DNA of 64,000 nucleotides. It comes from Flavobacteriales bacterium. GTDB taxonomy: Bacteria; Bacteroidota; Bacteroidia; Flavobacteriales_F; PHOS-HE28. The stretch covers positions 701,031-765,030 of the forward strand of contig JADJVC010000002.1 in NCBI GenBank assembly GCA_016710685.1, in the 5' to 3' direction. The stretch's first letter is position 1, and the number at the start of each line of letters is the position of its first letter. The notes under the pieces were generated by a model, which saw only the letters and a list, made by a program, of their open reading frames with translations, ran no database searches and was not told the DNA's origin. Shown one piece after another: positions 13,144 to 53,895 of the stretch. Made by a program: the position numbers and the translations under genes.

Positions 13144-13245
13144 ATGTTGATACCTCCCTGTTTGGGGGTGGTGATCACGGGGCGTAAAGCTAAGAGGAAG
13201 TGGGGAGCGGGAGCGGTTCGGGTTGAAATTGGTGGTGCAACTACC

Positions 13246-15573
13246 TTAGAACGTGTAGGACAATCCCACGCTGGGCAGGAATGGCAACTGGTTCACCCTG
13301 CTACCGGTTACACGGTCGCTGTAGAAAATATTTTCGCGGTCGTAGGCGTTCGTAATGCTGATGTCCGCTTGCACCACTTGGTGCTCATCGAGCTTCCACG
13401 TCTTGGTGATGCCGAGATCGAGACGGTGGTAATCGGGGAGGCGGCCTCCGTTAAGCGGTCCGTAGATGATGGCGAGATCGCCGTTGGCGGAGGTGATGTC
13501 CGTACTGGTGCCGTTGGAAAAGGGGAGCCGCTCATAGAAGCCTTGGTTCTGGGTGAAGGGGAAGCCCGATCCGTAGTTCCAACGGGCGCTGGCTTTCCAG
13601 CTTTCATGTTTTCCGAAGGTGTAGCTGGTCACGAGGTTCACGTTGTTGCGGCGGTCCCAGATGGGGTTGTACGTGTTCTCACCGTCGAAACGGTCCACGA
13701 AGTTGAGGGAGTAAACGAACCAGACGTACAGGCCTTTGTTCTCGTATTTTACCAGCATGTCGGCACCGTATGCGCTACCGGTTTCCACAACGAAGTCCTT
13801 CTTCAGTTCGTCGGGCTTGTCCGCGAATTCGGGAGTGTCGTTATAAAGCTTGTCGCGGTTCAAGTTGGTCACTTCGCGGAAGTCCTTGTAGTAACCCTCC
13901 ACGTTGAGGCTCGTCTTCGTGGTAAGGTCGTACTCAAATCCGGCGATGAAGTGGTTGGCGCGCTGAAGTGGGTCTTTCAATGTGCGCACGGTGCCGTCGG
14001 ATTGGGTAATGGAACCGGGGATGTCCGAAGGCGCGGTTATGAAGCCATAGAACAGGTTCACTACATCGCGATCGCTGTTGGTGGCGATGAGGTTCTGGGT
14101 GTACATGCCAGCGGCTCCCTTCAAGCGGAGCCGGTCGCTAAGATTGAACTTGACACCAAGTCGCGGTTCGGGGCTGAGCACCGCGAGCGTGGCGTAGTAC
14201 TGCAGGCGGACGCCGGGGTCCAGCACCAATTTGCCTGTATGGATCTTGTAATTGATATAGCCCGCGAGTTCGCTGCTCACCTTGTCCTGCTGCAGTTTGT
14301 AGCCGAGCGAATTGAAGTAGCTGAGGTTGGTTTTCACGCCGGCCACCTCGATGCCGTAGCGCACTTCATTGTCGCCAATGAAGTACTTGAAGTTGAGGCC
14401 GCCATTGAAGTTGTTGATGCCGCTGCTGCGCGGGTCGAGGTTGCCCTCCTTCAGGCTAATGTCGTAATTGCTTAAGGCGAAGATGCCTTCAATGAGCACG
14501 GCGCTGCCGGAGGGAACGAGCACGAAGTTGATGCCAGCGCCCCAGTTTTTCCAATCCAGATCACTGATGCCGCGGTACTTCACCCCATCGGTGAAATTGA
14601 AGCCGAACAGGTTCACCTTGCTGCCGTTGGATGCGTTGAGCGACACCTTCCCATAGATGTCGGTAAAGTTGAATGGCAGTCCCGCGCTGTCCACATAGTT
14701 GTACAACGTTTTGCTGGATTGGTCCAAGTAGCTGTGCTTGAAATTCAGCAGGAAGGAACTGCTTCCGTCGCCGGGCTTTTCGGGCTTTTTCAACGGGCCT
14801 TCCAGCAGGGCTTTGGCAGCGAAGGTGCTGGCGGCCACTTTTCCGCTCAAGCGGTTCTTGTTTCCGTCGCGCGTGGTGATGTCCATCACGCTGCTGATAC
14901 GACCGCCGTATTCGGCGTTGAATCCGCCGGTGATGACATCCGCGTTGCGGATCACGTCATTGTCGAACACGCTGAAGAGGCCGATGCTGTGGAAGGGGTT
15001 GTAGAGCACCATGCCGTCTATGTGCACCAAGTTTTGCACGGTGCTGCCGCCGCGGATGTAGAGCTGCCCGCCTTGGTCGCCGGTGAAGATCACGCCGGGG
15101 ACCACCTGCATGTACTGGGCCAGATCAGCCTGCCCGCCAATGGCGGGTAAGCGTTCGATCTGCTTCGGCGTAAGCTTGGTAACGCCTACACGCACGGTGT
15201 TTTCGGCTTCGCGCTTTTCGGCGCTTATCACTACGGTCTGCAAGCCCACGGAGCCTTTTTTCAAATGAAGCTGCTCGGTAAGGATCTGATCGGCCTTCAG
15301 GTCCACTTCCATGCTCAGGGTATCGAAGCCGAGGTAGACCACGCGGAGCGTGTAGTGCCCCGGCGGCACTTTGCTGATGGAGAAGTAACCGTTCACATCG
15401 GTTTGTGCACCGTGGGTTTCCGCACCACGCAATTGCACGGGCGTGAAAATGGAAGGTTCGCCGTTGGATGAATCGTATACGAAGCCACGCACAGTGGCGG
15501 TCTGCGAGAATGCGATAAGCGGAAAGGCAAATGCGCAAAGCAGCGCGAGGCGGTGGTTCAGTGTCGGTATCAT
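13246..15573 (-). CDS. TonB-dependent outer-membrane receptor with N-terminal carboxypeptidase-regulatory-like domain
   Basis: 775 aa. Signal peptide, CarbD-like segment (TVRGFVYDSSNGEPSIFTPVQL…DVNGYFSI), plug domain, C-terminal beta-barrel ending in F. No SusD partner adjacent. Confidence 0.85.
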   Translation of the reverse strand: MIPTLNHRLALLCAFAFPLIAFSQTATVRGFVYDSSNGEPSIFTPVQLRGAETHGAQTDVNGYFSISKVPPGHYTLRVVYLGFDTLSMEVDLKADQILTEQLHLKKGSVGLQTVVISAEKREAENTVRVGVTKLTPKQIERLPAIGGQADLAQYMQVVPGVIFTGDQGGQLYIRGGSTVQNLVHIDGMVLYNPFHSIGLFSVFDNDVIRNADVITGGFNAEYGGRISSVMDITTRDGNKNRLSGKVAASTFAAKALLEGPLKKPEKPGDGSSSFLLNFKHSYLDQSSKTLYNYVDSAGLPFNFTDIYGKVSLNASNGSKVNLFGFNFTDGVKYRGISDLDWKNWGAGINFVLVPSGSAVLIEGIFALSNYDISLKEGNLDPRSSGINNFNGGLNFKYFIGDNEVRYGIEVAGVKTNLSYFNSLGYKLQQDKVSSELAGYINYKIHTGKLVLDPGVRLQYYATLAVLSPEPRLGVKFNLSDRLRLKGAAGMYTQNLIATNSDRDVVNLFYGFITAPSDIPGSITQSDGTVRTLKDPLQRANHFIAGFEYDLTTKTSLNVEGYYKDFREVTNLNRDKLYNDTPEFADKPDELKKDFVVETGSAYGADMLVKYENKGLYVWFVYSLNFVDRFDGENTYNPIWDRRNNVNLVTSYTFGKHESWKASARWNYGSGFPFTQNQGFYERLPFSNGTSTDITSANGDLAIIYGPLNGGRLPDYHRLDLGITKTWKLDEHQVVQADISITNAYDRENIFYSDRVTGSRVNQLPFLPSVGLSYTF

Positions 15574-38196: not shown

Positions 38197-38930
38197 AGTA
38201 GGATTCACCCGGCCCGTATCCAGACCGTATTTATCGGCTATTAACGGGACGACTATGCGATCACGGCCCCGGAACATGCAGAGGTTTCCCGTCACATCGC
38301 GCACGTAAGGCGCACGCACACGCAAGGCCATGCAGACGGGGTTTCCGAAACCATCGCGCGCGTAACGGGACCCCGTGTTCACCTTGTTTCCGCCTTGTTA
38401 CACCGTGTTTTCACCGTTATAACAGCGGAATAACAGCGGTGAAAACAGACGAACTACTGCGCCAGAGAAAGGCCCTGTTTGCGTTTAGCGTCCTTTTTCC
38501 TTGCGCCAACGTTCAGGGGGATTGTAACCGCTGCAACGGTCCCGCAAAAGATCAACACAGGCGCGGCCAGTTCATTCTGGTTCCAGCTCGTGGAGGTCAT
38601 GAAATTCCCCGCGATCAACATCCCGAATGTCATGATTCAGCAGGTGCAACTAAGTCGTCTGGTTGAACGCCTTGATCTCATTCGGATGATACACATCTGG
38701 GGCCGGTGGAAGATCTTGCCATGCCCTCTAATGCACACATCAACAATGCTATGACTAGGAATCTCTGGGACGAAACTATGCATCGCTGTGTTCCCATCTT
38801 GTATTGTGTCAAATCTCAATAACAGGCGAGGAACAGGTGGCAATCGCCACAAACCGACAACCCAGTGACAACGCTACAACGAGGATCGCCGGAACCCTTT
38901 GCTATTGCTAGGATTGCGGCGAAACTTATG

Positions 38931-39004
38931 CGGTCCGGACGGGACTCGAACCCGCGACCTCCGCCGTGACAGGGCGGCATTCTAACCAGCTGAACTACCG
39001 AACC
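38931..39004 (-). tRNA. tRNA-Asp (anticodon GTC)
   Basis: Complement reads GGTTCGGTAGTTCAGCTGGTTAGAATGCCGCCCTGTCACGGCGGAGGTCGCGGGTTCGAGTCCCGTCCGGACCG. D-loop AGCTGGTTAGA. Anticodon loop CTGTCAC. T-loop GGTTCGAGTCC. 7-bp acceptor stem. Confidence 0.85.
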
Positions 39005-40545: not shown

Positions 40546-42066
40546 ATGAGATTATTCATACTCCCACTGCTATTTGTTTTTTCCTTCACGGCCAATGCCC
40601 AGAATTGGGATTTGTTCCCATTGAATCAGAAGTCGGTTTACGTGGATAGCACGCAAGCCTTGCTTAGCACAGAGCAGCATGTGGTGGATTCCATTCGAAT
40701 TTCTGGTAATGTTCGCACCCTTTACTTTGACCAAGAGAGCAGCAGTGGTTCCGCTTACGGCTGTGAAGGAATAACCGGCGTTCCGCAACAGTGGGCTTTT
40801 AATTCCTATATCATCGATTCGTTGGTCGAAGTTTCGGATACTGTCTATTTTCAATCCACCTTCAGCACAACGCCCTTCTACTTTCTCCCTCAAGCATCAG
40901 TAGGCCAAAGCTGGTCGGTGATTTCATCGTCATTCGCTAATGGATATAACACCATTACGATAACATGCGCAATGGCTGGTGTACAAACTTTCTTGGGACT
41001 TACGGACAGCGTCAAGGTCTTTTCGCTACTGCCCAACGGCAACTCTCCGGGGCAACTACCCATAAGTAATCAGCATATTGTGCTGAGTAAGAATTATGGC
41101 CTGCTATCCTATGTGCCTTTTGATCAATTCATGTACCACCCGGCAAATTCGCAATTCCAGACAAGGGAACTGGTCGGGTTGCAAATTGGAGCCATTACGG
41201 CAGGATATCAGCGGCCTGTAGTTTCCGGCTATTTCCATTTAAGTCCAGGAGATTTGCGCAGTTGGGAATTGCATTTTATGCCAGCTTGGATCATCGAACC
41301 TGAAACGCTGGAATACATGAAGGACAGCATTACAGGGGCTGTAAGCACGAGCGACTCTGTGGTTTACACGTTTGACCGAACGTTCTATCATTATGACCAG
41401 TCGGTTTCGTTCCATGAAGGGTTAACCGAGCGCTATTGGTTGCCCGATTTAAAAGCGATGCTTGAAGCGCCGGGCTATGGGATTGCAATCGGGGCTGGCT
41501 TGCAGTATAATAGCTTTGGCATTTTCGAACCGGTTTATGGGCAACCTTTGGTTTGGACTGCGACTCCACATGAATGGATATACGAGCCATTACTCGAAGC
41601 AACGGTGGAGCATCTTTCCCTTTATTATTCGGGCTCATTTTTAGATACAGCACAATGCCAGTTTCTCGAAGCGTCTGATCTCGCTGCTCAGGTTGACGTG
41701 GATAATTGGGCCGGGGTAACGCGCAAATACTTGTACAATATCAACGAAACTACCCAAACGCTCCTCGGCTTTCGTATCAACGGAATAGTAAAGGGCTTGT
41801 TAACCGTCGGAGTCAATCAAGCCCGAATAATCAATCGCACAGCCCTCACGATCCAACCCAATCCCGCCAAGGAAAGCATCACCCTCCAAGGCATACCGCA
41901 CGGCACAACCGGCCTTTTCACCGTATACGACGGCCTTGGCCGGGAGGTCATGAGCGGTTCGCTTGCCACTTCCCCGGTTTCCGTTGGAGGACTCCAACCC
42001 GGCCTTTATGTGGTGCAGTTGCGGTTGCAGGACAGAACGACAACGGCGCGCTTCGTGAAGGAGTGA
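40546..42066 (+). CDS. Secreted hypothetical protein with T9SS C-terminal sorting domain
   Basis: Signal peptide MRLFILPLLFVFSFTANAQ. C-terminus …LQPGLYVVQLRLQDRTTTARFVKE is the por_Cterm pattern. Lower GC. Confidence 0.6.
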   Translation: MRLFILPLLFVFSFTANAQNWDLFPLNQKSVYVDSTQALLSTEQHVVDSIRISGNVRTLYFDQESSSGSAYGCEGITGVPQQWAFNSYIIDSLVEVSDTVYFQSTFSTTPFYFLPQASVGQSWSVISSSFANGYNTITITCAMAGVQTFLGLTDSVKVFSLLPNGNSPGQLPISNQHIVLSKNYGLLSYVPFDQFMYHPANSQFQTRELVGLQIGAITAGYQRPVVSGYFHLSPGDLRSWELHFMPAWIIEPETLEYMKDSITGAVSTSDSVVYTFDRTFYHYDQSVSFHEGLTERYWLPDLKAMLEAPGYGIAIGAGLQYNSFGIFEPVYGQPLVWTATPHEWIYEPLLEATVEHLSLYYSGSFLDTAQCQFLEASDLAAQVDVDNWAGVTRKYLYNINETTQTLLGFRINGIVKGLLTVGVNQARIINRTALTIQPNPAKESITLQGIPHGTTGLFTVYDGLGREVMSGSLATSPVSVGGLQPGLYVVQLRLQDRTTTARFVKE

Positions 42067-42067
42067 A

Positions 42068-42197
42068 GTCAGTTGTCCGTTGTTAGTTGTCAGTTCTCAG
42101 GCGTTGCAGCGCCAAGGCGCTCTGGTGGCAGCGTACATTGCATCGTCCCGTCGGGGCGGCATTTAGTGCAGCCTGACAACTAACAACTGAAAACTAA
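42068..42197. repeat. Long inverted repeat with GTTGTCA-heptamer arms between convergent genes. The right arm overlaps the uvrA stop.
   Basis: gtcagttgtccgttgttagttgtcagtt (42068..42095) …GC-rich core… cctgacaactaacaactgaaaactaac (42171..42197). Confidence 0.6.
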
Positions 42198-45154
42198 CCA
42201 AGAACCGCTTTCAAATAATGCGCGGTATGGCCAATGCCACTGGCCACCAACCCGTCCGGAGTGCCTTCAAATACGATAGAACCACCGGCATCACCGGCTT
42301 CGGGACCAAGGTCGAGCAGGTGGTCCGCGCAGGTGATCACTTCCAAGTTGTGTTCGATCACCAGCACGCTGTGGCCATTGTCTATCAAGGCGTTCAGGGC
42401 TTTCAGCAACTTGGCGATGTCATGGAAATGCAGGCCCGTGGTTGGTTCGTCGAAGATGAAAAGCGTGGGCTTTTCATCGCTGCCTTTTATTAGGAATGAA
42501 GCCAGCTTGATACGTTGCGCTTCGCCGCCGGAAAGCGTGCTGCTGCTTTGGCCAAGCTTCACATAGCCTAAGCCGGTTTCCTGCAAGGGCAGCAGCTTGT
42601 CCGCGATGCGCTTTACGGCGTTGTGCTTTTCCTTGTGCTGGTTGAAGAAGAGCAGGGCATCATCCACCGTCATGTCCAGCAGGTCCGCAACGTCCTTGCC
42701 TTGGAATTTCACTTCCAAAATTTCTTCCTTGAAGCGTGTTCCGTGGCAGACTTCGCAGACCAAATTGATGTCCGCCATGAACTGCATTTCGATATGCACT
42801 TCGCCTTCGCCTTGGCACACTTCGCAGCGTCCGCCGTCCACGTTGAAGCTGAAGTATGCGGGCCTGTAACCGCGCATCTTGGCGGCTTCTTGCTCGCTGT
42901 ACAATTGGCGGATGTCGTCCCACGCTTTCACGTAAGTCACAGGATTGCTGCGCGAAGAACGGCCGATAGGATTTTGGTCGATCATCTCCACGGCTTTTAT
43001 GCGGTGCAGATCGCCGGTAAGTTCCTTGAATTCGCCGGGCCGTTCGCCACCGCCGCCTTCCAGCTCGCGGCGCAGGGCAGGGTAGAGGATGCGCTTAACC
43101 AACGTGGTTTTACCGCTGCCGCTTACGCCGGTCACCACGGTCAGCATGTGCAGCGGGAAAGCCGCGTCGATGTTTTTCAAATTGTTCTCGCAAGCGCCCT
43201 TTACGTTAATGCGGTCGCGCACCGGGCGGCGGCGGTCAGGTCGTTTGATCTGCTCGCGGCCGGTGAGGTACTTGGCCGTGAGGCTGTCGCTCTCCATCAA
43301 CTGGTCGTGCGTTCCGCTGAACACCACTTCGCCGCCGTGCGTGCCTGCTTCCGGGCCCATGTCGATGATGTGGTCCGCAGCGCGCATCACCTCTTCATCG
43401 TGCTCCACCACGATCACGGTATTGCCGAGATCACGCAGTTGCTTCAACACTTCGATCAAGCGGTGCGTATCGCGCGGATGCAGGCCAATGCTGGGTTCGT
43501 CCAGAATGTACATGCTGCCCACCAAGCTGCTGCCGAGCGAGGTGGCCAAGTCGATGCGTTGCGTTTCGCCTCCGCTGAGCGTGTTGCTACGGCGGTCCAA
43601 GGTCAAGTAACCCACGCCCACTTCGTCGAGATAGCGCAAGCGATTGGTGATCTCTTTCACTAAGCGTTCGGCCACCTTGGCATCGTTGCCGGGCAACTTC
43701 AGCGCTTTGAAAAACGCCAAGCATTTGGTGATGGGCAGGCGTGCCAGCTCGGTGATGTCCGTGCCCGCCACCTTTACATGCAGCGCTTCCGGACGCAGGC
43801 GCGAGCCGTGGCACAGTGTGCAGGTGGTTTTTCCGCGGTAGCGGCTGGCCAACACACGGTATTGGATCTTGTAGCTCTTTTGCTCACAGTACTGGAAGAA
43901 GGCATCGATGCCGTGCAGGCCGCGCGTGCCATTCCACAACAACCGCCGCTGTGCCTCGGAAAGTTCGCGGTATGGGCGGTGGATCGGGAAGTCACGATCG
44001 CCGAGGTCGCGGATGAAATCGCGTTTCCATTCGCTCAGTTTTTCGCCGCGCCATGGAGCAACGCAATCGTCGTAAAGCGAAAGCGATTTGTCGGGGATCA
44101 CCAAGTCGGGGTCCACGCCAAGAATGCTGCCGTGGCCTTCGCAACGCGGGCAAGCACCCACGGGATCGTTGAAGCTGAAAAGCTTGGGACTGGGTTCCTC
44201 GAAGGTGATACCGTCCAGTTCGAAACGGTCGCTGAACCGCATTTCCTTCGGCTTTCCCTTGGCGTCCGTGCCCAACAGCACGCAGGCGCCTTGGCCCTCG
44301 AAGAACGCGGCTTCGGCACTGTCTGCGATGCGGCCCTCCGATTCGTCTTCGCCAGAGAGCACGGTAATGCGGTCCAACACGATGCTCCACGGTCCGTCGC
44401 TGAGGTTTTTCGCGATCAACAGGTCTTCAATCCGCACAACATCACTGCCATCGTGAACGCGCGCAAAGCCTTGCTGTTGCAGCACGTCCAAGTGTTCGCG
44501 CAAGCTGCGACCTTCAGGCAAATGCACCGGCGCCATTAATAGCACGGTGCTGTCCTTCGGGAAGGAGTTTGCGCCCGCCACCACGTCTTCTATGGTGTCA
44601 CGCTTCACTTCGCGGCCACTTTCGGGGCTGAAGGTGTGGCCCGCGCGGGCGAAGAGCAGTTTGAGGTGGTCGTACACTTCGGTGCTGGTACCCACGGTGC
44701 TGCGCGGGTTGCTCGTCATCACCTTCTGTTCAATGGCAATGGCAGGGCTGATGCCGGTAATGCGGTCCACATCGGGCTTTTCCAAGCGGCCCAGAAACTG
44801 GCGCGCGTAGCTGCTAAGGCTCACCACGTAGCGGCGTTGGCCCTCAGCATAGAGCGTATCGAAGGCCAACGAGCTTTTGCCGCTTCCGCTAAGGCCGGTG
44901 ATCACCACCAGTTTGCCGCGCGGAATGTTCACCGTGATGTTCTTCAGGTTGTGGACGCGCGCGCCCTGCACGCTGATAAAGGCTTGTTTGATCACAGGCT
45001 TGGGGACGGAAGCCAGGTCCGGCACAGCGGCTTTGGGCTGCGGCGGTGCCTTGGCCTTCTTTTCTTGGGAACGGGAATGGGGTCGGGGCTTTTCACGGGG
45101 CCGCGAATTTACGGAGCATGGTCCAGTATCGAAGAGATCCCGTATATTTGGCAT
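42194..45154 (-). CDS. uvrA: Excinuclease ABC subunit A, with a basic/Pro-rich extension of about 55 aa before the first ABC module
   Basis: Two ABC ATPase modules, two zinc fingers (CPRCEGHG…, CEVCQGEGE…). The conserved core starts at …[13 protein letters not shown]. The track ORF extends further to 45214. Confidence 0.93.
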
Positions 45155-45349: not shown

Positions 45350-45961
45350 ATGTTGTCCACCCCATCGGGTCCTGCGAAATCAGGTACTCCCACAGATGTC
45401 GAGCTCGTTCGCCGCTATTGCGGTGGCGAAGAATATGCCTTCGAGCTGCTGCTCATGCGGCATAAGCGCAAAGTGTGGTCCCACATCTTCCTTATGGTGC
45501 GTGATCGCGAGGTAACAGAAGATCTTTTCCAGGAAGCCTTCATCAAAGTGGTACACCACTTGAAGGCCGGCAAGTACAATGAGGAAGGGAAATTCCTGCC
45601 TTGGGTTATGCGCATTGCGCACAACTTGGTCATCGACCATTTCCGCCGGTTGAAAAAGATGCCGATGAGCCGCAGCACCGACGAATACGACGTATTCGCC
45701 ACGCACGCCCAATCGGAAAAGAACGTGGAAGAACGCATCGTGAACGCCCAGATCGACGAGGACGTGCGGAAGCTCATCGACCAATTGCCACCGGAACAAA
45801 AAGAGGTAGTGGTGATGCGGACTTACTTGGACATGAGCTTCAAGGAGATCGCCGAACACACGGACGTAAGCATCAACACGGCTTTGGGCCGGATGCGTTA
45901 CGCCCTCATCAACATGCGCAGACTGATCAAGCAACACAAGATGGTGCTTGAACGGGCCTGA
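45350..45961 (+). CDS. ECF-type RNA polymerase sigma-70 factor
   Basis: Region 2 (LFQEAFIKVVHHL…LPWVMRIAHNLVIDHFRR). Region 4 HTH (EVVVMRTYLDMSFKEIAEHTDVSINTALGRMRYA). Confidence 0.85.
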   Translation: MLSTPSGPAKSGTPTDVELVRRYCGGEEYAFELLLMRHKRKVWSHIFLMVRDREVTEDLFQEAFIKVVHHLKAGKYNEEGKFLPWVMRIAHNLVIDHFRRLKKMPMSRSTDEYDVFATHAQSEKNVEERIVNAQIDEDVRKLIDQLPPEQKEVVVMRTYLDMSFKEIAEHTDVSINTALGRMRYALINMRRLIKQHKMVLERA

Positions 45962-45980: not shown

Positions 45981-46273
45981 CCGCCCCAGGAACGTCGGCC
46001 CGTAAGCCGGCGTTCGTGTTTTATACAATTGCCGGTCCGCGCTTGCAGCGCGAGCCTCTGTCACCCCGGCGAAGGCCGGGGTCGCACTCGACGGCGGTGC
46101 AGCAGGACTTTCTTAAGCGTGACCATCCTCAGCACGCGGCTCGGCATCCGCAATTGTCCGATGACCCGAGATGAGCTGAGCTACGCAGGTCTAATCACCA
46201 ATCACCCCTCGCCAATCACCCAGTCCCCACAATAACCCCTTTCGCCCGGCGTTTATCCACAAAACCACAACGC

Positions 46274-46435
46274 ATGGCACACGCTACTCTTCGGAAAGCA
46301 AGTCGTAAACGGATGGAAATGCCCGCCCAGCAGGGCCCCAGGGAGGCGACGATAAAGTCCATCCTCAGCTACAGCAAGGCCTTAAAGGTCGTAACAGTCC
46401 CGCCAGTAGGGCAGGTGGACATTGTATTGAACTGA
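46274..46435 (+). CDS. Candidate 53-aa basic small protein
   Basis: ATG…TGA gives MAHATLRKASRKRMEMPAQQGPREATIKSILSYSKALKVVTVPPVGQVDIVLN. Below the track's 60-aa cutoff. Preceded by AATCACC x3 repeats. Confidence 0.3.
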   Translation: MAHATLRKASRKRMEMPAQQGPREATIKSILSYSKALKVVTVPPVGQVDIVLN

Positions 46436-46520: not shown

Positions 46521-47156
46521 TCACCGAAACATGGCCTTCCTCCCAATTTCCTTGCAAATGGGGCACTTAAGCGGGTCATGCCGCTGCGCTGTACAATACT
46601 CCCGGCCGAAGTAGATGATCTGCAGGTGAAACACGTTCCAAGTGTCTTCCGGGAATAAACGTTTCAGGTCCGCTTCAGTCTGCTCCACGTTCTTGCCGGT
46701 GCTCAATCCCCAGCGCCTGGCGAGGCGGTGTATGTGCGTGTCCACCGGGAAGGCAGGCACGCCGAAGGCTTGTGACATCACCACACTGGCGGTCTTATGG
46801 CCGACGCTGGGCAAGGCTTCCAGCTCCGCGAAGGTGTTCGGTACTTGTCCACCGTGTTTCTCCAAAATGATCTCCGAAAGCCCATGGATCCCCTTGCTCT
46901 TCGCCGGTGAAAGTCCGCAAGGTTTGATGATCTCGCGGATTTCCTCCACTTCCAGTGCCGCCATCTGCTTTGGGTTGCGGGCTTTGGCGAACAACACCGG
47001 TGTTATCTCATTCACCTTTTTATCGGTGCATTGGGCACTCAGCACCACGGCAACCAACAGGGTGTACGGGTCCACGTGGTCCAGCGGTATCGCTGGCTGC
47101 GGATATAGCTTTTTCAATGTTTTCGCCACGAAGGCAGCTTTTTCTTTCTTGGTCAT
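46521..47156 (-). CDS. nth: Endonuclease III (DNA glycosylase/AP lyase, [4Fe-4S])
   Basis: HhH-GPD motif (LPSVGHKTASVVM). Catalytic K/D. C-terminal Cys cluster CTAQRHDPLKCPIC. Confidence 0.9.
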   Translation of the reverse strand: MTKKEKAAFVAKTLKKLYPQPAIPLDHVDPYTLLVAVVLSAQCTDKKVNEITPVLFAKARNPKQMAALEVEEIREIIKPCGLSPAKSKGIHGLSEIILEKHGGQVPNTFAELEALPSVGHKTASVVMSQAFGVPAFPVDTHIHRLARRWGLSTGKNVEQTEADLKRLFPEDTWNVFHLQIIYFGREYCTAQRHDPLKCPICKEIGRKAMFR

Positions 47157-47288
47157 GGGTGCACACAAAGGTGCGGTTGGAATGTAGGTCCATCAATCCG
47201 CCTCACTGTAAAACAGTTGTAACGGGGAGAATTTGCCGGACTTGAATCGAATTTTACCGTTCAGGGGCGATCATCAGATCGTAGCGCC

Positions 47289-47624
47289 TCACAGCTCTTC
47301 CAAAACGGATTTCCCGCTCGACCCATCTCCTGAAGTCCAGCGCCAGGTTTCGTGAAGCCGGATCTTACCATTGGGCATTACTTCAGGTTTTGAGGTACAG
47401 ACACCCGTCATAAGTTCCCCTCTCAGGTTGACCTGGTGGTAGCGCATTTCAATAAGGCCATTTTTGTCCACCAATCCGATCAAGTGTCCTTTGCTAATCT
47501 GGCCTCCCTGATATTCAGAGGTTAAAATGTTGCCACTTTGTTTATAGGCGAAAACGGTCTCGGCTGTCGTTTCACCATTATCGGTGTTCTCAACCGGCCT
47601 GAATAGTTTGTTGTTGTAGTCCAT
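47289..47624 (-). CDS. Hypothetical protein, lower GC
   Basis: 111 aa ORF. No confident family assignment. Confidence 0.4.
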   Translation of the reverse strand: MDYNNKLFRPVENTDNGETTAETVFAYKQSGNILTSEYQGGQISKGHLIGLVDKNGLIEMRYHQVNLRGELMTGVCTSKPEVMPNGKIRLHETWRWTSGDGSSGKSVLEEL

Positions 47625-47871
47625 TCACTTCACGACCTTATTTCTTAATCCTCACGTAGTGTCTTTAACCCACTCGCAGGGTCTTCGCCAATAAATGTGC
47701 GCTCCAGCAAGCATGACCCTGCGACCGCATGGACCCAGGCCGACCGGGTCCCGGTACCCTCGCTGCGCTCTTTTCCACCCTCGCACCCCTAGTCAATTCG
47801 GCTCCCCTACCTTGTTGGCCCTTCTCCTGACAGGGCACTTCCGTACTCGAACGTGCCTGTCGTCAGTGGCT

Positions 47872-48258
47872 CAATGGCACAACGGCCACGCCTTCCATTT
47901 TTAGTTCAGCAACAAGCGCTTCAAGGTCTGCCACGCGGTAGTTGACCATAAAGTCCTTGCTGGAAGGCTCGAAGTACTTGGTATCTTCGGCAAACGGCCT
48001 CATTGGGTTTGCCCTTTCTTGGTACTGTCCGCGCCTTCAAACCATTCGAAGGTGGCCCCGTAGTCGTTGGTGTTCAATCCGAGGTGGGTTTTGTACCACG
48101 TGGCCAGGGACCTTAAGCGCAACACTCGAAGAAGATGCACCGATGCCTGTTGCCTCCTTCATCCCCCTTTTGGGTTGTTCAGTGGTGGCTGCTTTGAATG
48201 CGAAGCCGAGGCTGAAGGTGGCTGCGAAGGCTATGGGCAAAATTAGTGGGCTTTTCAT
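47872..48258 (-). pseudogene. Frameshifted VOC/glyoxalase-family gene fragments behind an N-terminal signal-peptide ORF
   Basis: Three minus-strand frames carry consecutive VOC-like segments: …VHLLRVLRLRSLATWYKTHLGLNTNDYGATFEWFEGAD…, then …MRPFAEDTKYFEPSSKDFMVNYRVADLEALVAELKMEGVAVV…. The listed 73-aa ORF carries only the signal peptide. Confidence 0.35.
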
Positions 48259-48316
48259 GGGTTTCTAATTAAAAGGATAACTAGCGGACTACCAAGGATG
48301 GGTCACAGTGCGTCCG

Positions 48317-48553
48317 TCAAGTGCAGGGGGCATGTATTGTTGCAAGGCATTGAAGGCCAGTTAGGTGTGAATCCGGCTTCGATATGATCCTTGGTAATGC
48401 GCGGTGGCTTCTTAGGGTGTATAATGGGCTTAAGGTCCGTCCAAATGTGCGAGGCGAATCGTGGGCGTAAATCTCAGTTGTCCTTGTGCTGGCATGGCCA
48501 AGGTAACTCTTGGAAGCATCGCCTACCACACAAACATTAGCAGCGAACTGCAC
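48317..48553 (-). pseudogene. C-terminal remnant of a tyrosine recombinase/integrase (box II motif only)
   Basis: …VGDASKSYLGHASTRTTEIYAHDSP… matches LGHxxxxTTxxYxH with the catalytic Tyr. Motif at 48461..48502. An in-frame stop lies 2 codons upstream of the fragment, and there is no N-terminal or catalytic RHR region. Confidence 0.5.
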
Positions 48554-48559
48554 CTCCGG

Positions 48560-49423
48560 TCACCCCACAACCCAAAGCCGCTTCGCCTCCAAACGGAACC
48601 GCACTTCTTGCCCGATCTCCACCGGTTCACCATCCAAATGCGCGAGTGTACCGTCTTGGTGTACCATGGCATTGTCCGTTGCGATGTTGGTGATGTAGGG
48701 GCTGCCATCGATGCGCCCGTTATACATGCGGATGAAAGCGGCGAGCATGGGCAGCAGGGGCGGCTTGGACACGATGCGCAGTTCCGCCAGACCATCATCG
48801 GGCAGGGAACCAGGGCTGATCACGGCCCCGTTGCCGAACTCGCGGGTGTTGCAGAACACGAGCATCAGCACGCTGTCTTCGCGGGTTTGGTTGTTCGCCT
48901 TCGTCACCGTGTGCATGGGCTTGGCCCCAAGGATGTGCTGAATGATGAGCCGCATGTAATTCCACATGCCGCGCCCTTTGCTTTGGTCGAAGGCATGGGC
49001 TACGCGGGCATCGAAGCCGATACCGGCAGTGCCGAGGAAAAGGTGGTCGTTGAGGTAGCAAACGTCCAATTGACGTGCCTTTCCGTTGAAGGCTGTGCGC
49101 AAGGCTTGCGCTGGATCACGTGGCAGTTTCAAGGATCGCGCGTAGCCATTTCCGGAGCCCATGGGCACAATGCCAAGCTGCAATGTGGAGCCTACCATGC
49201 CAGATGCTACGGCGTTCAGCGTGCCATCGCCTCCGATGGAAATGATGCGTTCCGATCCGTTGGCATTGGCCTCCTCCGCAAAGCGTTTGCCGTCGCCTGG
49301 CGCGGCGATGGTGCAGAACTCCAACTCGTGGTCATTGGCACGACCAAGCTCTTCGGCGAGACTGCGCAGGCTTTCAGCGCGCTTTTTCCCGGAACGGGGA
49401 TTGATGACCACTGTGATCTTCAT
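48560..49423 (-). CDS. Diacylglycerol/lipid kinase family protein (YegS/DagK-like)
   Basis: MKITVVINPRSGK…ISIGGDGTLN…GIVPMGSGNG. DAGK catalytic domain. Confidence 0.75.
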   Translation of the reverse strand: MKITVVINPRSGKKRAESLRSLAEELGRANDHELEFCTIAAPGDGKRFAEEANANGSERIISIGGDGTLNAVASGMVGSTLQLGIVPMGSGNGYARSLKLPRDPAQALRTAFNGKARQLDVCYLNDHLFLGTAGIGFDARVAHAFDQSKGRGMWNYMRLIIQHILGAKPMHTVTKANNQTREDSVLMLVFCNTREFGNGAVISPGSLPDDGLAELRIVSKPPLLPMLAAFIRMYNGRIDGSPYITNIATDNAMVHQDGTLAHLDGEPVEIGQEVRFRLEAKRLWVVG

Positions 49424-49561: not shown

Positions 49562-51412
49562 TTATTTGTGGATTACCAGTTCATGGCTCAGCAGCCGGTT
49601 GTTGTACTGCTGTATCGCGGCTTGCAACGTAGGCAGCAAGTCTGTTTCCGTTTCAGCAGGAGCGTGTTCTTTTCCATCCGGAGAAGCCGCCCACAAGATG
49701 CGCTCACCATCGGACCGCAACTGGCAACTGTCGCCTACGATGAGCCAGGTTGCGCTGCCTTCGCTAACGGCCGCCGGTGCGCGTTCATGCCGCAAGGTGC
49801 TGCTGCCAAAGGCGAAGAAGGGCTTCGGGTACCCGATGATGTCGAGCACCGTTGGCAGGATGTCGATCTGTTGGGCCACGCGGTTTTCCATGCGTGGTGC
49901 AAGGGCTGCGGGCATGTAGAAGAGCATCGGCACCCAATGATCGTACGCCGCGCCACTGGTCTGTCCGGTGCGCTCCAAGTCGGCGGTGTGATCGGCAGTG
50001 ATTACGAAGAGCGTGTTGCGGAACCACGGCATGGTTTCCGCCGTGGCGAAGAACTGGCGCAGGGCATCATCGGCGTAACGTAATGTGGGCATAATGGGCA
50101 GGTCGCCGCCCGCAAAGCGTTTGGCGTCGGCCTCAACCAGTTTGTACGGGTGGTGGGAGCTCAGTGTGAAGAAACAGTTCACGAAAGGCTGCTTTTGCTT
50201 GTCCATTTCATGGGCGAAGAATTGGAGAAAAGGCCGGTCGCGGATGCCCCAAGTGCCGTCGTAGTCTTTTGTGTCCGGGTACTGGTCGCGGCCCACGTAG
50301 CGTTGGAAACCCGCGGTTTTTGCAAAGGCATCGAAGCCCATGGTTCCGTTGTGGCCACCGTGATAGAAGGCGGAACTGTAGCCTTCGCGACCAAGCAGAC
50401 CCGGCAAGGCCGTAATGGGCTGCTGCGCGTATGGCGATTCAATGAAAGCCTCATCCATCATTTTCGGTAATGAGGCCAAGACCGCTGGAATGCCGTCGAT
50501 GCTTCGCCGTCCGTTAGCGTATGCGCGGTTGTAGGAAAGGCTTTGGCCCATGAGCGAATCGAGGAAGGGCATGTAGCCTTGGCCGGTACCGTTCAGTCTT
50601 CCGCTGTATGCTGCGCTGAAACTTTCGAGGATGATCACCACCACGTTCGGCTTCGTTGCTGCCAGCGCAGTGTCGCCGTACAGGTGCTGCACGGGCCATA
50701 AGCGATCGGCCTCTTCCTGCGGAAGCAAAGTCTTCTCGGAAAGCGTTGGTTTTCCGATGCTTGTCATCACGGTGAAGGGCGTGTTGAGCACCAGCGGCAT
50801 GTATGCGGGCTGGGCGTATTTGCTGGAATCCAGCACGCCGAGCGGGATGTACTGCAGGCCGCCGCGTGAGCAAAGAACCACCAGCGCCACCACTGCTGCG
50901 CGCCAAGCCCACCAAGGGGTTGCGGGTCCATCGACCTGTTTCCGTCCGGCCCAGCGGTAGCCCATTTCGGCGATGGCCATGGACGCGATGAAGATCACTG
51001 CGATGTACCAGAAATCCTTCAGAAAAACCGGAACGAGGCTGGCCAGGTCGTTGCCACCGGTGGCAATGCCGAAGAGGTCTGCTGTGCTTCGCTTTAGCGT
51101 GAATTTGAAGTATTCAATATCAATGGAATTCAGGAAAAAGCAGAACGCGTTGCTGAGGTGGAAGAGCACTTTTTGCACCGTTCGGAAAACGCCTGAAGGG
51201 GTTGGTGCTATCAGAAAAGTGAGTATCCACGGCATGTACAGCCATGCGATAGCGCTGAGGTCGAAGCGCACGCCACCCAGAAATGCCGACAACGGTGTTG
51301 CAGGGAACGTGGTATGGTTCAGCACGCCGAAGAGGATCCGCTGCGCGGTGAAGAGCACGACCAACACGCCAAGGCGAAGCAGCAAAACACGGAGCGGACG
51401 GAAGTTTGGCAC
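49562..51412 (-). CDS. LTA-synthase/sulfatase-family (alkaline phosphatase superfamily) membrane protein
   Basis: N-terminal TM helices then an extracellular sulfatase-like domain (VVVIILESFSAAYSG…, HHPYKL…ITADH). The track ORF starts at a GTG at 51580 and runs through an AT-rich promoter-like stretch. A GTG near 51412 (VPNFRPLRVLLL) is more plausible. Confidence 0.7.
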   Translation of the reverse strand: MPNFRPLRVLLLRLGVLVVLFTAQRILFGVLNHTTFPATPLSAFLGGVRFDLSAIAWLYMPWILTFLIAPTPSGVFRTVQKVLFHLSNAFCFFLNSIDIEYFKFTLKRSTADLFGIATGGNDLASLVPVFLKDFWYIAVIFIASMAIAEMGYRWAGRKQVDGPATPWWAWRAAVVALVVLCSRGGLQYIPLGVLDSSKYAQPAYMPLVLNTPFTVMTSIGKPTLSEKTLLPQEEADRLWPVQHLYGDTALAATKPNVVVIILESFSAAYSGRLNGTGQGYMPFLDSLMGQSLSYNRAYANGRRSIDGIPAVLASLPKMMDEAFIESPYAQQPITALPGLLGREGYSSAFYHGGHNGTMGFDAFAKTAGFQRYVGRDQYPDTKDYDGTWGIRDRPFLQFFAHEMDKQKQPFVNCFFTLSSHHPYKLVEADAKRFAGGDLPIMPTLRYADDALRQFFATAETMPWFRNTLFVITADHTADLERTGQTSGAAYDHWVPMLFYMPAALAPRMENRVAQQIDILPTVLDIIGYPKPFFAFGSSTLRHERAPAAVSEGSATWLIVGDSCQLRSDGERILWAASPDGKEHAPAETETDLLPTLQAAIQQYNNRLLSHELVIHK

Positions 51413-51717
51413 GGCGCGAAGATCGGGTTGCGGAAAAGAAAGAACGCCGATTTCTCTGATTGTTATGATTTGCGTTGATATGATTTGGTCGGAGATTTTG
51501 TTTTTGGTACTGGGTACAGGGTATTGCGTACCGGGTACTGCCGATGCTGCCGACTGCACGCTGCCGCCGCCTTCTGTCACTGCCAGCAGTATCTATAAGA
51601 ATTCAACGTTTCGTCCGTTGCGTCCGTTGCGGTTCAAATTCAGGATTTTGCGGTAACCCCAACCCATCTTCCCCGCTACCTTTGCCACCAATCGCAACGC
51701 TTGTGGTACCTACAGCC

Positions 51718-53742
51718 ATGTTTCAAGAAACCATCGACAAGAAGCAGCTCACCTTCGAGCGTAAAAAGCTCACCGACGCGGAGCTTTTGGACATTTACGA
51801 GCAGTTATTGCGTCCGCGCCTCATCGAGGAGAAAATGCTGAGCATGCTGCGGCAGGGGCGGATCAGCAAGTGGTTTAGCGGCATTGGCCAGGAGGCCGTG
51901 GCCGTCGGTTCGGCCATTGCGATGCTACCGGACGAATACATTTTGCCGATGCACCGCAACCTCGGCACGTTTACAACGCGCGGAGTGCCGATGGGCCGCC
52001 TCTTCAGCCAATTCCAAGGGTATGCGAACGGCTTCACCAAGGGGCGCGATCGCAGTTTCCACTTCGGTTCGCAGGAGTACAAAATGGTGGGCATGATCAG
52101 CCATTTAGGCCCACAGCTCGGCGTGGCCGACGGCATCGCCTTGGCGCACAAACTGCGGAAGGAAAGCAAATGCACGCTCGTCTTCACCGGCGACGGGGCC
52201 ACCAGCGAGGGCGACTTCCATGAAAGCGTGAACACCGCCGCCGTGTGGGACCTGCCGGTGATCATCGTGGTGGAGAACAATGGCTACGGACTCAGCACGC
52301 CCAGCAGTGAGCAGTTCCGCTGCCGCTACATCAGCGACAAGGCGCTCGGCTACGGCATGGAAAGCCGCGTGGTTGCGGGCAACAACATTTTGGAGGTCAT
52401 GCATACGCTGCGCGAAGTAGCGGAGAGCATCCGGCGCCGCCCGCGGCCCATCTTGGTGGAGTGCATGACCTTCCGCATGCGTGGGCATGAGGAAGCCAGC
52501 GGCACCAAATACGTGCCCAAGGAATTGATGGCGGAATGGGAGAAGAAGGACCCGGTAGCTAATTACGAAAGCTGGCTGGTGGAGGAGGGTATATTGAGCG
52601 AAACGGTGAAGGACGCCACGCACAACGCCATCAAGCAGGAGATCGCACACGAAGTAGAGGCTGCTTTCGCGGAAAGCCCGGTGAAAGCCGAACTTTCCGT
52701 TGAGTTGAATGACGTTTATGCCAAGCCGATCGTTTTGGGCGATCGCGGCAAAGCCGTGGTGGAGCCGGTCGCGGAAGCCAAAGAGATGCGTTTCGTCGAT
52801 GCGATATCGGACGGCCTGCGGGAGAGCATGAAACGCCATGACAACCTGGTGTTGATGGGGCAGGATATCGCCGATTACGGCGGTGCTTTCAAAGTGACGG
52901 ACGGGTTGATGGCGGAGTTCGGCAAGGATCGTGTGCGCAACACGCCGCTTTGCGAAAGTGCGATCCTCGGCGCAGGCCTTGGCTTAAGCATCAACGGCAT
53001 GAAGAGCATGGTGGAGATGCAGTTCGCGGACTTTGTGAGCGAAGGCATGACGCAGATCTGCAACAACCTCGCGAAGACCCATTGGCGCTGGGGCCAGAAT
53101 GCGGACGTGGTAGTGCGCATGCCTACCGGCGCGGGCAGTGGCGCGGGGCCGTTCCACAGTCAAAGCAACGAGGCGTGGTTCTTCAAAACGCCGGGCTTGA
53201 AGATCGTGTACCCTTCCTTCCCGTACGATGCGAAAGGCTTGCTGTGCGCAGCTTTCGACGATCCCGACCCGGTGATGTACTTCGAGCACAAGAACCTCTA
53301 CCGCAGCCTTTCGGGGCCGGTGCCTGAAGGTTGGTACACATTACCGATCGGTGAAGCGGCGTTGCTGCGCGAAGGCACGGACCTCAGCATCATTACGTAT
53401 GGCATGGGGGTGCATTGGGCGCTTGAGGCGTTGGACGCCGAACCCGGCATCAGCGCAGATCTCATCGACTTGCGCACTTTACTCCCGTGGGACCGGGAGC
53501 GTGTGCTGGAAAGCGTACGCAAGACCGGCAAAGCCTTGGTATTGCACGAGGACACGTTGACCGGAGGAATTGGTGGCGAGATCTCTGCGACCATCATGGA
53601 GGAATGTTTCAACAGCATGGAGGCCCCGGTGGTCCGGATTGCGTCCATCGACACGCCAGTGCCGTTTTCGCACGCGTTGGAGGCGCAATTTTTGCCGAAG
53701 GAACGGTTGAAAGCGGCGTTGGTGAAGTTGGCGAATTTCTGA
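51718..53742 (+). CDS. Fused 2-oxoacid dehydrogenase E1 component alpha/beta subunit (ThDP-dependent)
   Basis: Start MFQETIDKK. Alpha part with the ThDP motif GDGATSEGDFHES…VVENNGYG. Beta transketolase-like part (NTPLCESAILGAGLGLS…EMQFADF). 674 aa. Confidence 0.85.
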   Translation: MFQETIDKKQLTFERKKLTDAELLDIYEQLLRPRLIEEKMLSMLRQGRISKWFSGIGQEAVAVGSAIAMLPDEYILPMHRNLGTFTTRGVPMGRLFSQFQGYANGFTKGRDRSFHFGSQEYKMVGMISHLGPQLGVADGIALAHKLRKESKCTLVFTGDGATSEGDFHESVNTAAVWDLPVIIVVENNGYGLSTPSSEQFRCRYISDKALGYGMESRVVAGNNILEVMHTLREVAESIRRRPRPILVECMTFRMRGHEEASGTKYVPKELMAEWEKKDPVANYESWLVEEGILSETVKDATHNAIKQEIAHEVEAAFAESPVKAELSVELNDVYAKPIVLGDRGKAVVEPVAEAKEMRFVDAISDGLRESMKRHDNLVLMGQDIADYGGAFKVTDGLMAEFGKDRVRNTPLCESAILGAGLGLSINGMKSMVEMQFADFVSEGMTQICNNLAKTHWRWGQNADVVVRMPTGAGSGAGPFHSQSNEAWFFKTPGLKIVYPSFPYDAKGLLCAAFDDPDPVMYFEHKNLYRSLSGPVPEGWYTLPIGEAALLREGTDLSIITYGMGVHWALEALDAEPGISADLIDLRTLLPWDRERVLESVRKTGKALVLHEDTLTGGIGGEISATIMEECFNSMEAPVVRIASIDTPVPFSHALEAQFLPKERLKAALVKLANF

Positions 53743-53767
53743 GTTGCCGAGAACCGACGAAAATGCT

Positions 53768-53895
53768 GCGACCTCTGCGGGGTCGTGGCGCGCGCAGGGG
53801 GCAATCGGGGCTTATTTCTATGACCCCTTCGGGGTCGGCAGAACCAGGGGCTTAGAAAATCGCTACGCAAACGCGGTTCGACCCCGCAGGGGTCG
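53768..53895. repeat. Cluster of three REP-like GC-rich hairpins (GACCCC…GGGGTC stems) between convergent genes
   Basis: cgacc-tctgc-ggggtcg, gacccc-ttcg-gggtc, cgacccc-gca-ggggtcg within 130 nt. Confidence 0.5.

Follow-up and report, generated by a model that had tools for sequence, protein, structure and literature searches.

The 935 nt (positions 47625-48559) between an intact lipid-kinase gene and an intact Avidin_like gene in an uncultured Flavobacteriales genome are best read as inert relic DNA inside a small strain-variable islet, which lies between the gene for a DAGK/YegS-type kinase and the endonuclease III gene (nth). We assign this reading, including the history proposed for it, a probability of roughly 0.7. 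The relic consists of the 3' end of a tyrosine recombinase gene followed by a broken gene of the VOC/glyoxalase family. The locus is an ordinary product of gene-islet turnover and carries no working element. The analysis covered a 64-kb stretch of the genome (hereafter, the window), and all features studied are located on its minus strand.

The left anchor of the islet, the intact DAGK/YegS gene (48560..49423), encodes 287 aa from the ATG at 49423 to the TGA at 48560-48562, and its product matches Pfam DAGK_cat (1.3e-29) and YegS_C (2.6e-14). Exact-protein look-ups returned a match for the 287-aa protein, and no record for the 303-aa form of the DAGK ORF, the 111-aa protein or a 73-aa mini-ORF. 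The right anchor is nth (46521..47168; Pfam HhH-GPD, 3.2e-24), separated by a spacer (47169..47288) from the intact Avidin_like (PF26421) gene of 111 aa (47289..47624). Among the ORFs of the 935 nt there is no plausible gene, which agrees with an earlier note on this DNA that had described about 900 nt devoid of an intact gene. The same note had seen neither a tRNA nor a repeat boundary; indeed, the nearest and only tRNA of the window is at 38930-39004, and no flanking direct repeat was detected at the segment boundaries. The G+C content is 0.48-0.49 over 47300-47750 and 0.54 over the replaceable slot, a modest deviation from the 0.564 of the window, and reaches 0.58-0.62 in the flanking genes.

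The part next to the kinase gene (48410..48555) is the 3' stub of an Xer/IntI-like tyrosine recombinase gene. It contains YLGHASTRTTEIYAH, encoded at 48461-48505, which is the box II motif with the catalytic nucleophilic Tyr. The open frame holding this motif begins with GTG at 48553, two codons past the DAGK/YegS stop and in the same frame; the in-frame stop that had been placed two codons upstream of the fragment does precede the open frame by that distance, while the motif itself is 18 codons away from it. Box II is followed by a C-terminal tail ending in SPLYTL and then by the former stop codon, which reads TGA directly after SPLYTL in contigs L001-L008 and AGA in the window and in contig L044. 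A 1-nt insertion just before LGH disrupts the frame in the window; in relatives, the stub is kept in a single frame, CFQELLGHASSRTTEIYTPDSPRTFERTISPLYTL followed by a stop, and the Tyr-x-His position reads YTP.

With the one inserted base removed, the stub matches recombinase C-termini through the final residue. In a phmmer search of 1.84e9 proteins, the best true match (P0123; E 1.7e-6, 71% identity) ends at the C-terminus of that protein, and the full-length matches P0141, P0136 and P0154 (E 3e-4 to 7e-4) carry PF00589 at E ~1e-43. The core-binding (SAM-like) domain PF13495 is present in the closest full-length homologues; the cluster names of the integrase homologues carry no taxonomic information. 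The two top phmmer matches, LRR and WD40 repeat proteins with 5-7 stretches each, were dismissed as spurious, and a word-indexed protein search with the 49-aa stub of the relatives gave no candidates. All six PDB matches are tyrosine recombinase C-termini, the best being IntI4 (2a3v, E 0.008). The tblastn search for further integrase fragments that the earlier note had proposed was run with five full-length or partial integrases: their last 33-37 residues aligned to 48413-48511, and no other integrase similarity was detected within the 64-kb window. A complete catalytic domain in one frame (Arg-I, Lys, His-II, Arg-II) and the N-terminal core-binding domain are both absent by this search, and the intact DAGK gene lies directly upstream of the stub. 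Since the start codon and the catalytic domain are missing, the stub is unable to encode an active enzyme.

A chance match in a noncoding spacer could be argued from the marginal Pfam score of the raw 80-aa stub frame (E 0.15) and from a looser version of the motif, which occurs ~0.11 times per shuffled window. However, translating the window in six frames gives the strict pattern LGHxxxxTTxxYxH a single time, against 0 of 300 dinucleotide-preserving shuffles, the similarity continues 16 residues past the motif to the exact C-terminus and stop, and the phmmer E-value of 1.7e-6 was obtained against 1.84e9 proteins. Tyrosine recombinases also account for every PDB match and for almost all of the weak plasmid tblastn matches listed, which, at E 1-7, are suggestive, though not significant, and fall inside annotated integrases. 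The probability of a chance origin is negligible, and the fragment is, on these similarities, a genuine remnant, as the earlier note had supposed for the box II motif at 48461.

The stub could alternatively be the end of an integron integrase, with the VOC and Avidin_like genes as cassettes of a decayed integron with an inverted integrase. The best PDB match is the Vibrio integron integrase IntI4, the best NCBIfam match of the raw fragment, itself marginal, is integrase_gron (E 0.034), the neighbouring genes are small and co-oriented, and the slot has alternative cassettes. Yet attC-like sites, sought as an R'' RYYYAAC ... R' GTTRRRY core pair (57-141 nt) after each cassette ORF, do not occur on either strand of 47000-48700, with four in the whole window, and the slot breakpoints are located in conserved flanks and not at attC sites. 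The nearest full-length relatives fall short of the cut-offs for integron integrases, and their alignment to that model is split into two pieces, so that they look Xer/XerA-type. The part of the gene that would hold an IntI-specific additional domain is deleted at this locus. The arrangement of stub and cassettes is also the opposite of the canonical one, as in integrons the cassettes adjoin the 5' end of intI, not its 3' end. The integron reading is largely refuted by these observations and is extremely unlikely.

The second component of the relic (47789-48258) is a gene of the VOC/glyoxalase family that encodes a signal peptide and is interrupted by numerous indels and a stop codon. VOC-like pieces are found in all three minus frames behind the ATG at 48258 and a signal-peptide-like N-terminus, just as the earlier note had described them. 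The frame-stitched reconstruction gave 2113 matches, the best of them (P0001; E 8.6e-68, 82% identity over 97% of the query) being an orthologue that passes Pfam Glyoxalase_6 and Glyoxalase. The pseudogene measures 470 nt against 477 nt for the intact gene and contains a 3-nt deletion, at least five frame-shifting indels upstream of the scrambled block B described below, more indels within that block, and an internal TAA. Its longest piece has 73 codons, conserved motifs such as KCxDPK are lost, and the ancestral TAG stop is kept at 47789-47791. VOC homologues elsewhere occur in unrelated gene contexts in which the Avidin_like protein was not found, and the idea that the two genes travel as a pair was rejected.

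Eleven further contigs assigned to the species (L001-L008, L037, L038 and L044) have an intact 158-aa VOC gene at this position. One of them, contig L044, shares private SNPs of the window genome. The private bases of the window match functional homologues in only 12 of 66 columns, and the L044 sequence matches them in 51 of 66. A metagenome scan with a conserved 29-mer yielded two more contigs, both of the intact type, and no second contig with the pseudogene allele. The damage is private to this assembly and restricted to a small number of sharply bounded blocks, with identical DNA around them. This rules out gradual erosion for the VOC gene, and its description as an anciently eroded passenger has to be given up. 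Of the old integration decayed by deletion and frameshifts that had been envisaged, the real remnant and the variability of the islet stand, and the gradual erosion of the VOC gene does not.

Relative to L044, all damage is contained in four sharp, indel-rich blocks that are 30-40% different, and the remaining DNA is identical. Besides the three blocks described next, the window departs from the L044 sequence at 48002. Block A (48104..48167), inside the VOC pseudogene, differs from the sister contigs by 14 substitutions and 7 gap columns in 70 columns and has identical flanks. Block B (47729..47897) comprises the last ~35 VOC codons, the VOC stop and ~60 nt downstream, with 28 substitutions and 37 gap columns in 186 columns, and ends where the leader common to all haplotypes starts. 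Block C0 (48300-48330) belongs to the spacer that separates the integrase stop from the VOC start (48259..48409), the former VOC promoter region, where relatives carry a length-polymorphic poly-C (C9-C10) and the window has C5. The substitutions are AT>GC biased (31 vs 10), and further scrambled blocks, e.g. 46217-46056, 53713-53884 and 41933-42332, are confined to unconstrained DNA. The 14-mer GGGATGAAGGAGGC of block A is identical to an alternative haplotype (H3; L039, 1549-1562), and block B has at its edge an 11-mer that equals the same haplotype.

Three specific origins of the blocks were considered and rejected. For a template switch or quasi-palindrome, a comparison with the ancestral sequence nearby gave, apart from the collinear matches, none of >=9 nt in either direct or inverted orientation. 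Import from a functional VOC homologue is at odds with the 12 of 66 columns in which the private bases match outgroups and with the rarity in the family of motifs such as FEYG. As for a consensus chimeric with H3, the sequence shared with that cassette is limited to one 14-mer and one 11-mer, and blocks C0 and B have no general k-mer excess. The clustering is unlike ordinary pseudogene decay, and it is known from one assembly.

The VOC damage may reflect an unusual process of clustered mutation or conversion, or it may have arisen as a consensus artefact in a population MAG assembled from long reads. In the latter case the stub would be real, the dead VOC gene would have been produced by consensus building or polishing of a Nanopore/CANU population MAG, and the VOC gene of the organism would be intact as in L044; reads of co-occurring strains with a different slot cassette, or low local coverage, were proposed as the cause of the garbling. 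The confinement of the differences to four indel-rich blocks in identical DNA, the coincidence of block C0 with the C9-C10 homopolymer, and the sharing of the 14-mer and the 11-mer with the H3 haplotype are in line with this explanation. So are the source of the DNA (protein MBK8581294.1 is encoded on a 1.15-Mb MAG contig), the origin of L009, L018 and L021 as CANU 'tig' MAGs from an activated-sludge study, an obviously garbled uvrA in the sister assembly L006, and the confinement of the pseudogene allele to the window among the independent contigs found. On the other hand, not one of the neighbouring coding sequences in 16 kb contains an indel, the 64-kb window has intact long ORFs throughout, a divergence of 30-40% far exceeds the usual consensus error, and the other scrambled blocks occur in unconstrained DNA only, as expected of real mutation filtered by selection. 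The AT>GC bias resembles a mutational or conversion bias, and the window is itself only presumed to belong to the activated-sludge data set. On balance, we regard an artefact as a serious, though less probable, alternative to an organism that has lost its VOC gene.

A residual function of the stretch, either as a small ORF (a 78-codon frame at 48317-48553 or the 73-codon signal-peptide ORF at 48037-48258) or as a structured RNA, was also considered. The spacer part at 48265-48412 folds mildly better than shuffles (z = -2.2), and a hairpin at 47674-47724 is conserved between haplotypes. However, the relatives do not keep the frame that either small ORF has in the window, so that no ORF is conserved except the intact VOC gene; for the other two stretches, folding is no better than in shuffles; promoter-like (0 found) and terminator-like sites are no more numerous than in shuffles; and an Rfam search of the locus returned nothing, even with a cut-off as loose as E <= 1. 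An imperfect inverted repeat (48284-48299 / 48387-48402) is present in the integrase-VOC spacer. The conserved hairpin (stem CGCAGGGTC.../...GACCCTGCG, 10 bp; loop 31 nt) has its stem preserved in VOC-type and ATPase-type haplotypes alike; it lies at the right boundary of the replaceable slot and belongs to the leader of the Avidin_like gene, outside the scar. A residual function is very unlikely, and the stretch is treated below as inert.

The Avidin_like gene is evidently under purifying selection (dS 0.32 and dN 0.017 against L003). It has 3803 homologues, with 72-78% identity across Bacteroidota, and is absent from L009-L032. As this intact gene is part of the islet, the islet exceeds the span first noted; the variability of the segment among relatives, which had been anticipated, was observed. 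A segment of ~1.39 kb, comprising the stub, the VOC gene and the Avidin_like gene, is missing from the two nearest species (L009 and L010), in which DAGK and nth are roughly 90-100 nt apart. Homology with these genomes breaks at 48565-48567 and resumes at ~47176 (L010) or ~47157 (L009), in the region of the Avidin_like-nth spacer that holds the right end of the segment. The synteny comparison recommended in the earlier note therefore places nth next to DAGK in the two closest other species, and the stub-bearing segment is accordingly an insertion or a variable islet. This adjacency could itself be a derived deletion, as more distant relatives hold 4-7 kb of other genes at the same position.

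Within the species, all haplotypes are common up to TGACCGG (48556) and then diverge. Contigs L039-L042 carry a cassette of an ATPase (AAA_21-type), a membrane protein and DUF6157 between the same breakpoints, and L011, L032 and the more distant relatives have other DNA between DAGK and nth. By these alignments, the slot varies between strains and has at least three alternative fillings, of which the stub and VOC part is one. The dS values of the neighbouring genes range from 0.02 to 0.32, as expected of a recombination mosaic. No genome with a full-length integrase at the DAGK-nth site was found, and tblastn revealed no other mobility gene at the segment edges. Given that there is no att-like repeat, tRNA or other mobility gene, it is solely the stub and the presence/absence pattern that point to a mobile-element origin.

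We propose that an element with an Xer/IntI-like recombinase, and with a secreted VOC gene downstream as its probable cargo, arrived right after the DAGK stop in the ancestor of the species. A deletion that began at the DAGK stop and spared only ~40 codons at the integrase 3' end would then have left the stub. The VOC gene would have remained functional in most strains and died in the sampled genome through clustered indels, substitutions and a stop codon, and the slot is now filled, depending on the strain, by the stub with an intact VOC gene, the stub with a dead VOC gene, or the ATPase (AAA_21-type), membrane protein and DUF6157 genes. The exchange of these fillings most likely took place through homologous recombination within conserved flanking sequence, namely the DAGK gene and the Avidin_like leader. 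A bolder version of events would make the 3' end of DAGK/YegS, in this Flavobacteriales clade, a hotspot of site-specific integration used by an Xer-like recombinase to deliver small cargo islets and, at the same time, the blocks C0, A, B and 46217-46056 a product of real, AT>GC-biased clustered mutagenesis or conversion acting on the unconstrained DNA of the lineage. At least five different fillings are present at this 3' end among close relatives; we consider the combination unlikely.

For annotation, we advise labelling the locus as an integrase remnant and a VOC pseudogene (or possible assembly error) within a small strain-variable islet; its importance beyond annotation is small. It provides a worked example of how a motif of 14 residues can be established as the remnant of a real gene, how a within-species comparison can overturn a reading of ancient erosion, and why, at sites that vary between strains, an apparent pseudogene in a long-read population MAG has to be confirmed from the reads. 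The scrambled blocks, if real, would point to a clustered mutational or conversion process that is worth a closer look.

The stub resembles the Xer/XerA- and integron-type 'simple' tyrosine recombinases (PF00589 with PF13495, NCBIfam NF040815; solved structures 2a3v (VchIntI4), 5hxy and 4a8e (XerA)) in its box II, ...QELLGHASxRTTEIYxH with the nucleophilic Tyr, and in a ~16-residue tail that ends in SPL(D/Y)xL with the stop codon at the same position. It differs from them in that only the last 33-48 codons remain, the Arg-Lys-His-Arg part, the core-binding domain, the start codon and the promoter being gone, with the frame broken in the window and YTP in place of Tyr-x-His in the relatives, as in a remnant. 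The VOC gene is similar to the secreted VOC/glyoxalase proteins of Bacteroidota (~157-159 aa, PF00903 with PF18029; e.g. P0001 and P0023, the Hanamia caeni VOC family protein), with which it shares length and signal peptide and is collinear throughout, P0001 being found at the identical position in sister strains; unlike them, the copy in the window has a 3-nt deletion, many frame-shifting indels, an internal stop and lost motifs (KCxDPK). Replacement-type flexible genomic islets, in which alternative cassettes occupy the space between conserved flanks within one species, are familiar from the population genomics of marine and freshwater bacteria. The slot differs from such islets in being very small (0.9-1.8 kb) and in the recombinase remnant in one filling, which hints at a site-specific origin of at least that filling. 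It resembles them in its identical flanks, its sharp common breakpoints, its unrelated cargo in different strains and its empty state in the sister species; presence in some lineages together with an intact empty site in close relatives (L009 and L010) is the pattern by which genomic islands are recognized.

On the minus strand, a sulfatase-family gene (49562-51580) and a DAGK/YegS lipid kinase gene (DAGK, 48560-49423) are followed by a 935-nt stretch holding no credible gene (47625-48559), an Avidin_like gene (47289-47624) and nth (46521-47168), beyond which lie a plus-strand sigma-70 factor gene (45350-45961) and then uvrA. The features that the earlier note described from the sequence were found again: the integrase-like motif (YLGHASTRTTEIYAH) is read at 48461-48505 of the minus strand, in an open frame that opens two codons past the DAGK stop and in the same frame; VOC-like pieces occur in every minus-strand frame, following an ATG at 48258 and a signal peptide; and no tRNA, Rfam family or boundary repeat was found at the gene-free stretch.

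Judged by similarity, the integrase fragment (hereafter the stub, about 48410-48555, minus strand) is a true gene remnant. Pfam matched the raw fragment marginally, over profile positions 152-169 of 172 (E 0.15). In L001-L008, eight near-identical metagenome contigs, the spacer lies in a single frame (...CFQELLGHASSRTTEIYTPDSPRTFERTISPLYTL) with a stop directly after; relative to them, the window has a 1-nt insertion just 5' of LGH, and the old stop is changed from TGA to AGA. A 41-aa sequence with the single inserted base corrected was used as the query for protein searches. Exhaustive phmmer comparison with 1.84 billion proteins yielded 44 matches at E <= 1e-3, and those inspected, repeat-protein matches aside, were tyrosine recombinase C-termini; the clearest of the repeat-protein matches were the two that ranked first, to an LRR and to a WD40 protein. 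The best relative, P0123 (protein end ...RYIQELLGHSSTRTTEIYTHVTPRTLGRIKSPLDEL), is 71% identical (E 1.7e-6), and the strict motif occurred in none of 300 dinucleotide shuffles of the window, so that the chance match named by the earlier note as its refutation does not hold. In the PDB, the six matches all fell at the very C-terminal end of tyrosine recombinases, the best being integron integrase IntI4 (2a3v, E 0.008, residues 285-318 of 320). The proposed tblastn search with integrase homologues aligned just the last 33-37 residues, at 48413-48511, and revealed no further integrase similarity anywhere in the 64 kb. Full-length homologues (P0141, P0136 and P0154) possess Phage_integrase and Phage_int_SAM_4 domains and score as Xer/XerA-type "site-specific tyrosine recombinase/integron integrase", under the integron-integrase cut-offs. 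An integron reading was rejected, there being no attC cores and the nearest full-length relatives not being true IntI. By descent the stub belongs to the Xer/IntI-like branch of the tyrosine recombinases, but it falls short of a complete domain; having neither a start codon nor a catalytic domain save box II, it cannot be functional.

Comparison of gene order places this remnant in a variable region. Of the other species found in the genome collection, the nearest two, L009 and L010 (DAGK 86-88% identical at the amino acid level), have ~90-100 nt between DAGK and nth; they match the window up to a point within the final two codons of DAGK (48565-48567) and again from shortly ahead of the start of nth (47157-47176). 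Since DAGK adjoins nth in these genomes, which is the outcome named beforehand as supporting integration, the stub, VOC and Avidin_like gene (~1.39 kb, the islet) are an extra segment in the window species. L011 and L032 hold ~1.2 kb of unrelated DNA at this position, and in more distant relatives the interval is 4-7 kb long and includes other long ORFs, among them one of ~800-850 aa. The G+C content of the islet is modestly below that of its flanks, and no att-type repeat was found at its edges. A 15-nt inverted match (93% complementary) between the nth interior (46967-46981) and the last DAGK codons (48564-48578) lies off the islet boundary and is probably due to chance. The window species appears to have no representative in the species-representative genome collection, where a scan found no genome of this species (best DAGK match 88% at the amino acid level).

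The stub and VOC part, or slot, is itself replaceable within the species. Contig L039, with 99.7% nucleotide identity to the window in the 3' part of DAGK, carries instead a cassette (L039 positions 781-2580) encoding a 263-aa AAA_21/AAA_15/ABC-type ATPase, a 140-aa hydrophobic protein without family and a DUF6157 protein; this cassette's right-hand end is seen in L040-L042. Partial PADLOC matches of the ATPase to AriA, PtuA and mad3 (E 1e-13 to 1e-16) were noted, and the cassette may be a small defence-like module. Its left breakpoint lies directly past TGACCGG (48556/48555), and its right one at a hairpin 5' of the Avidin_like gene (about 47730-47664). This hairpin (47674-47724; 10-bp stem CGCAGGGTC / GACCCTGCG, 31-nt loop) is part of the Avidin_like leader, is kept in both slot haplotypes and is the sole conserved noncoding feature nearby. 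The Avidin_like protein (111 aa, PF26421), labelled 'n-acetylglutamate synthase' in NCBI records, is strongly conserved across Bacteroidota (72-78% identity, 3803 matches). Within a few kb, synonymous sites diverge between L003 and the window by as little as 0.02 (sigma) and as much as 0.32 (Avidin_like, the neighbourhood's highest, where dN is low at 0.017), the mark of a recombination mosaic.

A frame-stitched reconstruction of the VOC gene matched 2113 VOC-family proteins, the best being P0001 (158 aa, 82% identity, E 8.6e-68), which passes Pfam Glyoxalase_6 and Glyoxalase. Its gene lies in L001-L008 in exactly the window's context (sulfatase, DAGK, 297-nt stub-containing spacer, VOC, Avidin_like, nth, small ORF, sigma, uvrA), within 15 kb collinear at 95.9% identity. 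VOC is also intact in L037 and L038 (metagenome scan) and in the Logan contig L044, and the 3' end in L043 is of the intact type. In the window, the ancestral frame (48258 to 47789) has lost 3 nt, contains an internal TAA and carries at least five frame-shifting indels upstream of its last 35 codons and further indels within them; it is a pseudogene belonging to a secreted VOC family common in Bacteroidota. The poly-C tract ~62 nt 5' of the VOC ATG varies among the intact-VOC contigs (L001-L008, L037, L038 and L044), being C10 in six, A+C9 in four and A+C10 in L044, and could be a phase-variable switch in the promoter region.

The earlier note took the multiple frameshifts as erosion of an old integration event, a reading contradicted by these intact relatives and by damage that is found in the window only and is blocky when compared with L044. 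L044 and the window encode one and the same DAGK protein, and L044 shares the window's private SNPs both in that gene and in the stub, among them the AGA in place of the old stop; it shares a K>M change in VOC too, although its own VOC is intact. The two differ by 0-2 positions per 100 nt outside block C0 (48300-48330, where the poly-C tract, C9-C10 in relatives, is cut to C5), block A (48104-48167; 70 columns, of which 14 are substituted and 7 gapped), an isolated 1-nt deletion at 48002 and block B (47729-47897; 186 columns, of which 28 are substituted and 37 gapped). Elsewhere in the slot, 3' of the VOC start codon, 363 columns contain three substitutions, and the equally unconstrained stub has no differences over 48352-48451; therefore, gradual neutral decay cannot explain the blocks. 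Their substitutions are AT>GC biased (31 vs 10), no template was found in nearby sequence, no likeness to functional VOC homologues was detected, and they have just one 14-mer and one 11-mer in common with the L039 cassette. Intact-VOC relatives have a second hairpin of the same stem just upstream of the leader hairpin (L003 about 8500-8600), which block B swaps for a different one (GGGACCCGG...CTGGGTCC). The spacer between sigma and nth contains another such block (46056-46217; ~55-60% identity with indels in otherwise >99% identical DNA), where relatives call a 96-aa ORF and the window keeps just a 53-aa ORF (46274-46435, plus strand); similar blocks occur at 53713-53884 and 41933-42332.

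We favour, with a probability of about 0.6, real clustered events, arising by error-prone repair or by patchy conversion whose donor would be a diverged copy outside the window: over 16 kb not one indel falls in a neighbouring coding sequence, the ORFs along the window are intact, and the scrambled blocks are confined to unconstrained DNA. A consensus artefact is less likely. In its favour, the identical 111-aa protein (MBK8581294.1) lies on a 1.15-Mb MAG contig; L009, L018 and L021 are CANU "tig" MAGs from a Danish activated-sludge study, to which the window presumably also belongs; and uvrA in a sister metagenome assembly, L006, looks like garbled consensus. There (11147-14065, JGI 3300047159), uvrA falls into some eight ORFs and differs from that of L003 by ~5% substitutions and ~1% gaps, the upstream sequence being identical; uvrA is also split in L001, L002 and L004.

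The most likely history, in part inferred, would begin with an element directly 3' of DAGK whose Xer-like tyrosine recombinase gene read towards a downstream VOC. All of the recombinase gene but its last ~40 codons would then have been deleted, the deletion reaching no further than the DAGK stop, which is indispensable; VOC, which has a promoter region and poly-C tract of its own, would have stayed functional in most strains and be dead, or mis-assembled, in the window genome. Present-day slot exchange among strains would proceed by homologous recombination in the flanks. Of the proposed decayed mobile-element scar, the scar itself stands on stub similarity and on synteny with L009 and L010, but the age and nature ascribed to the VOC decay do not. 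The locus is an ordinary relic without working function; the scrambled blocks are its sole unusual aspect, for which read-level data should precede any biological claim. Small replacement-type flexible islets are known from population genomics, and the islet between DAGK and nth resembles them.
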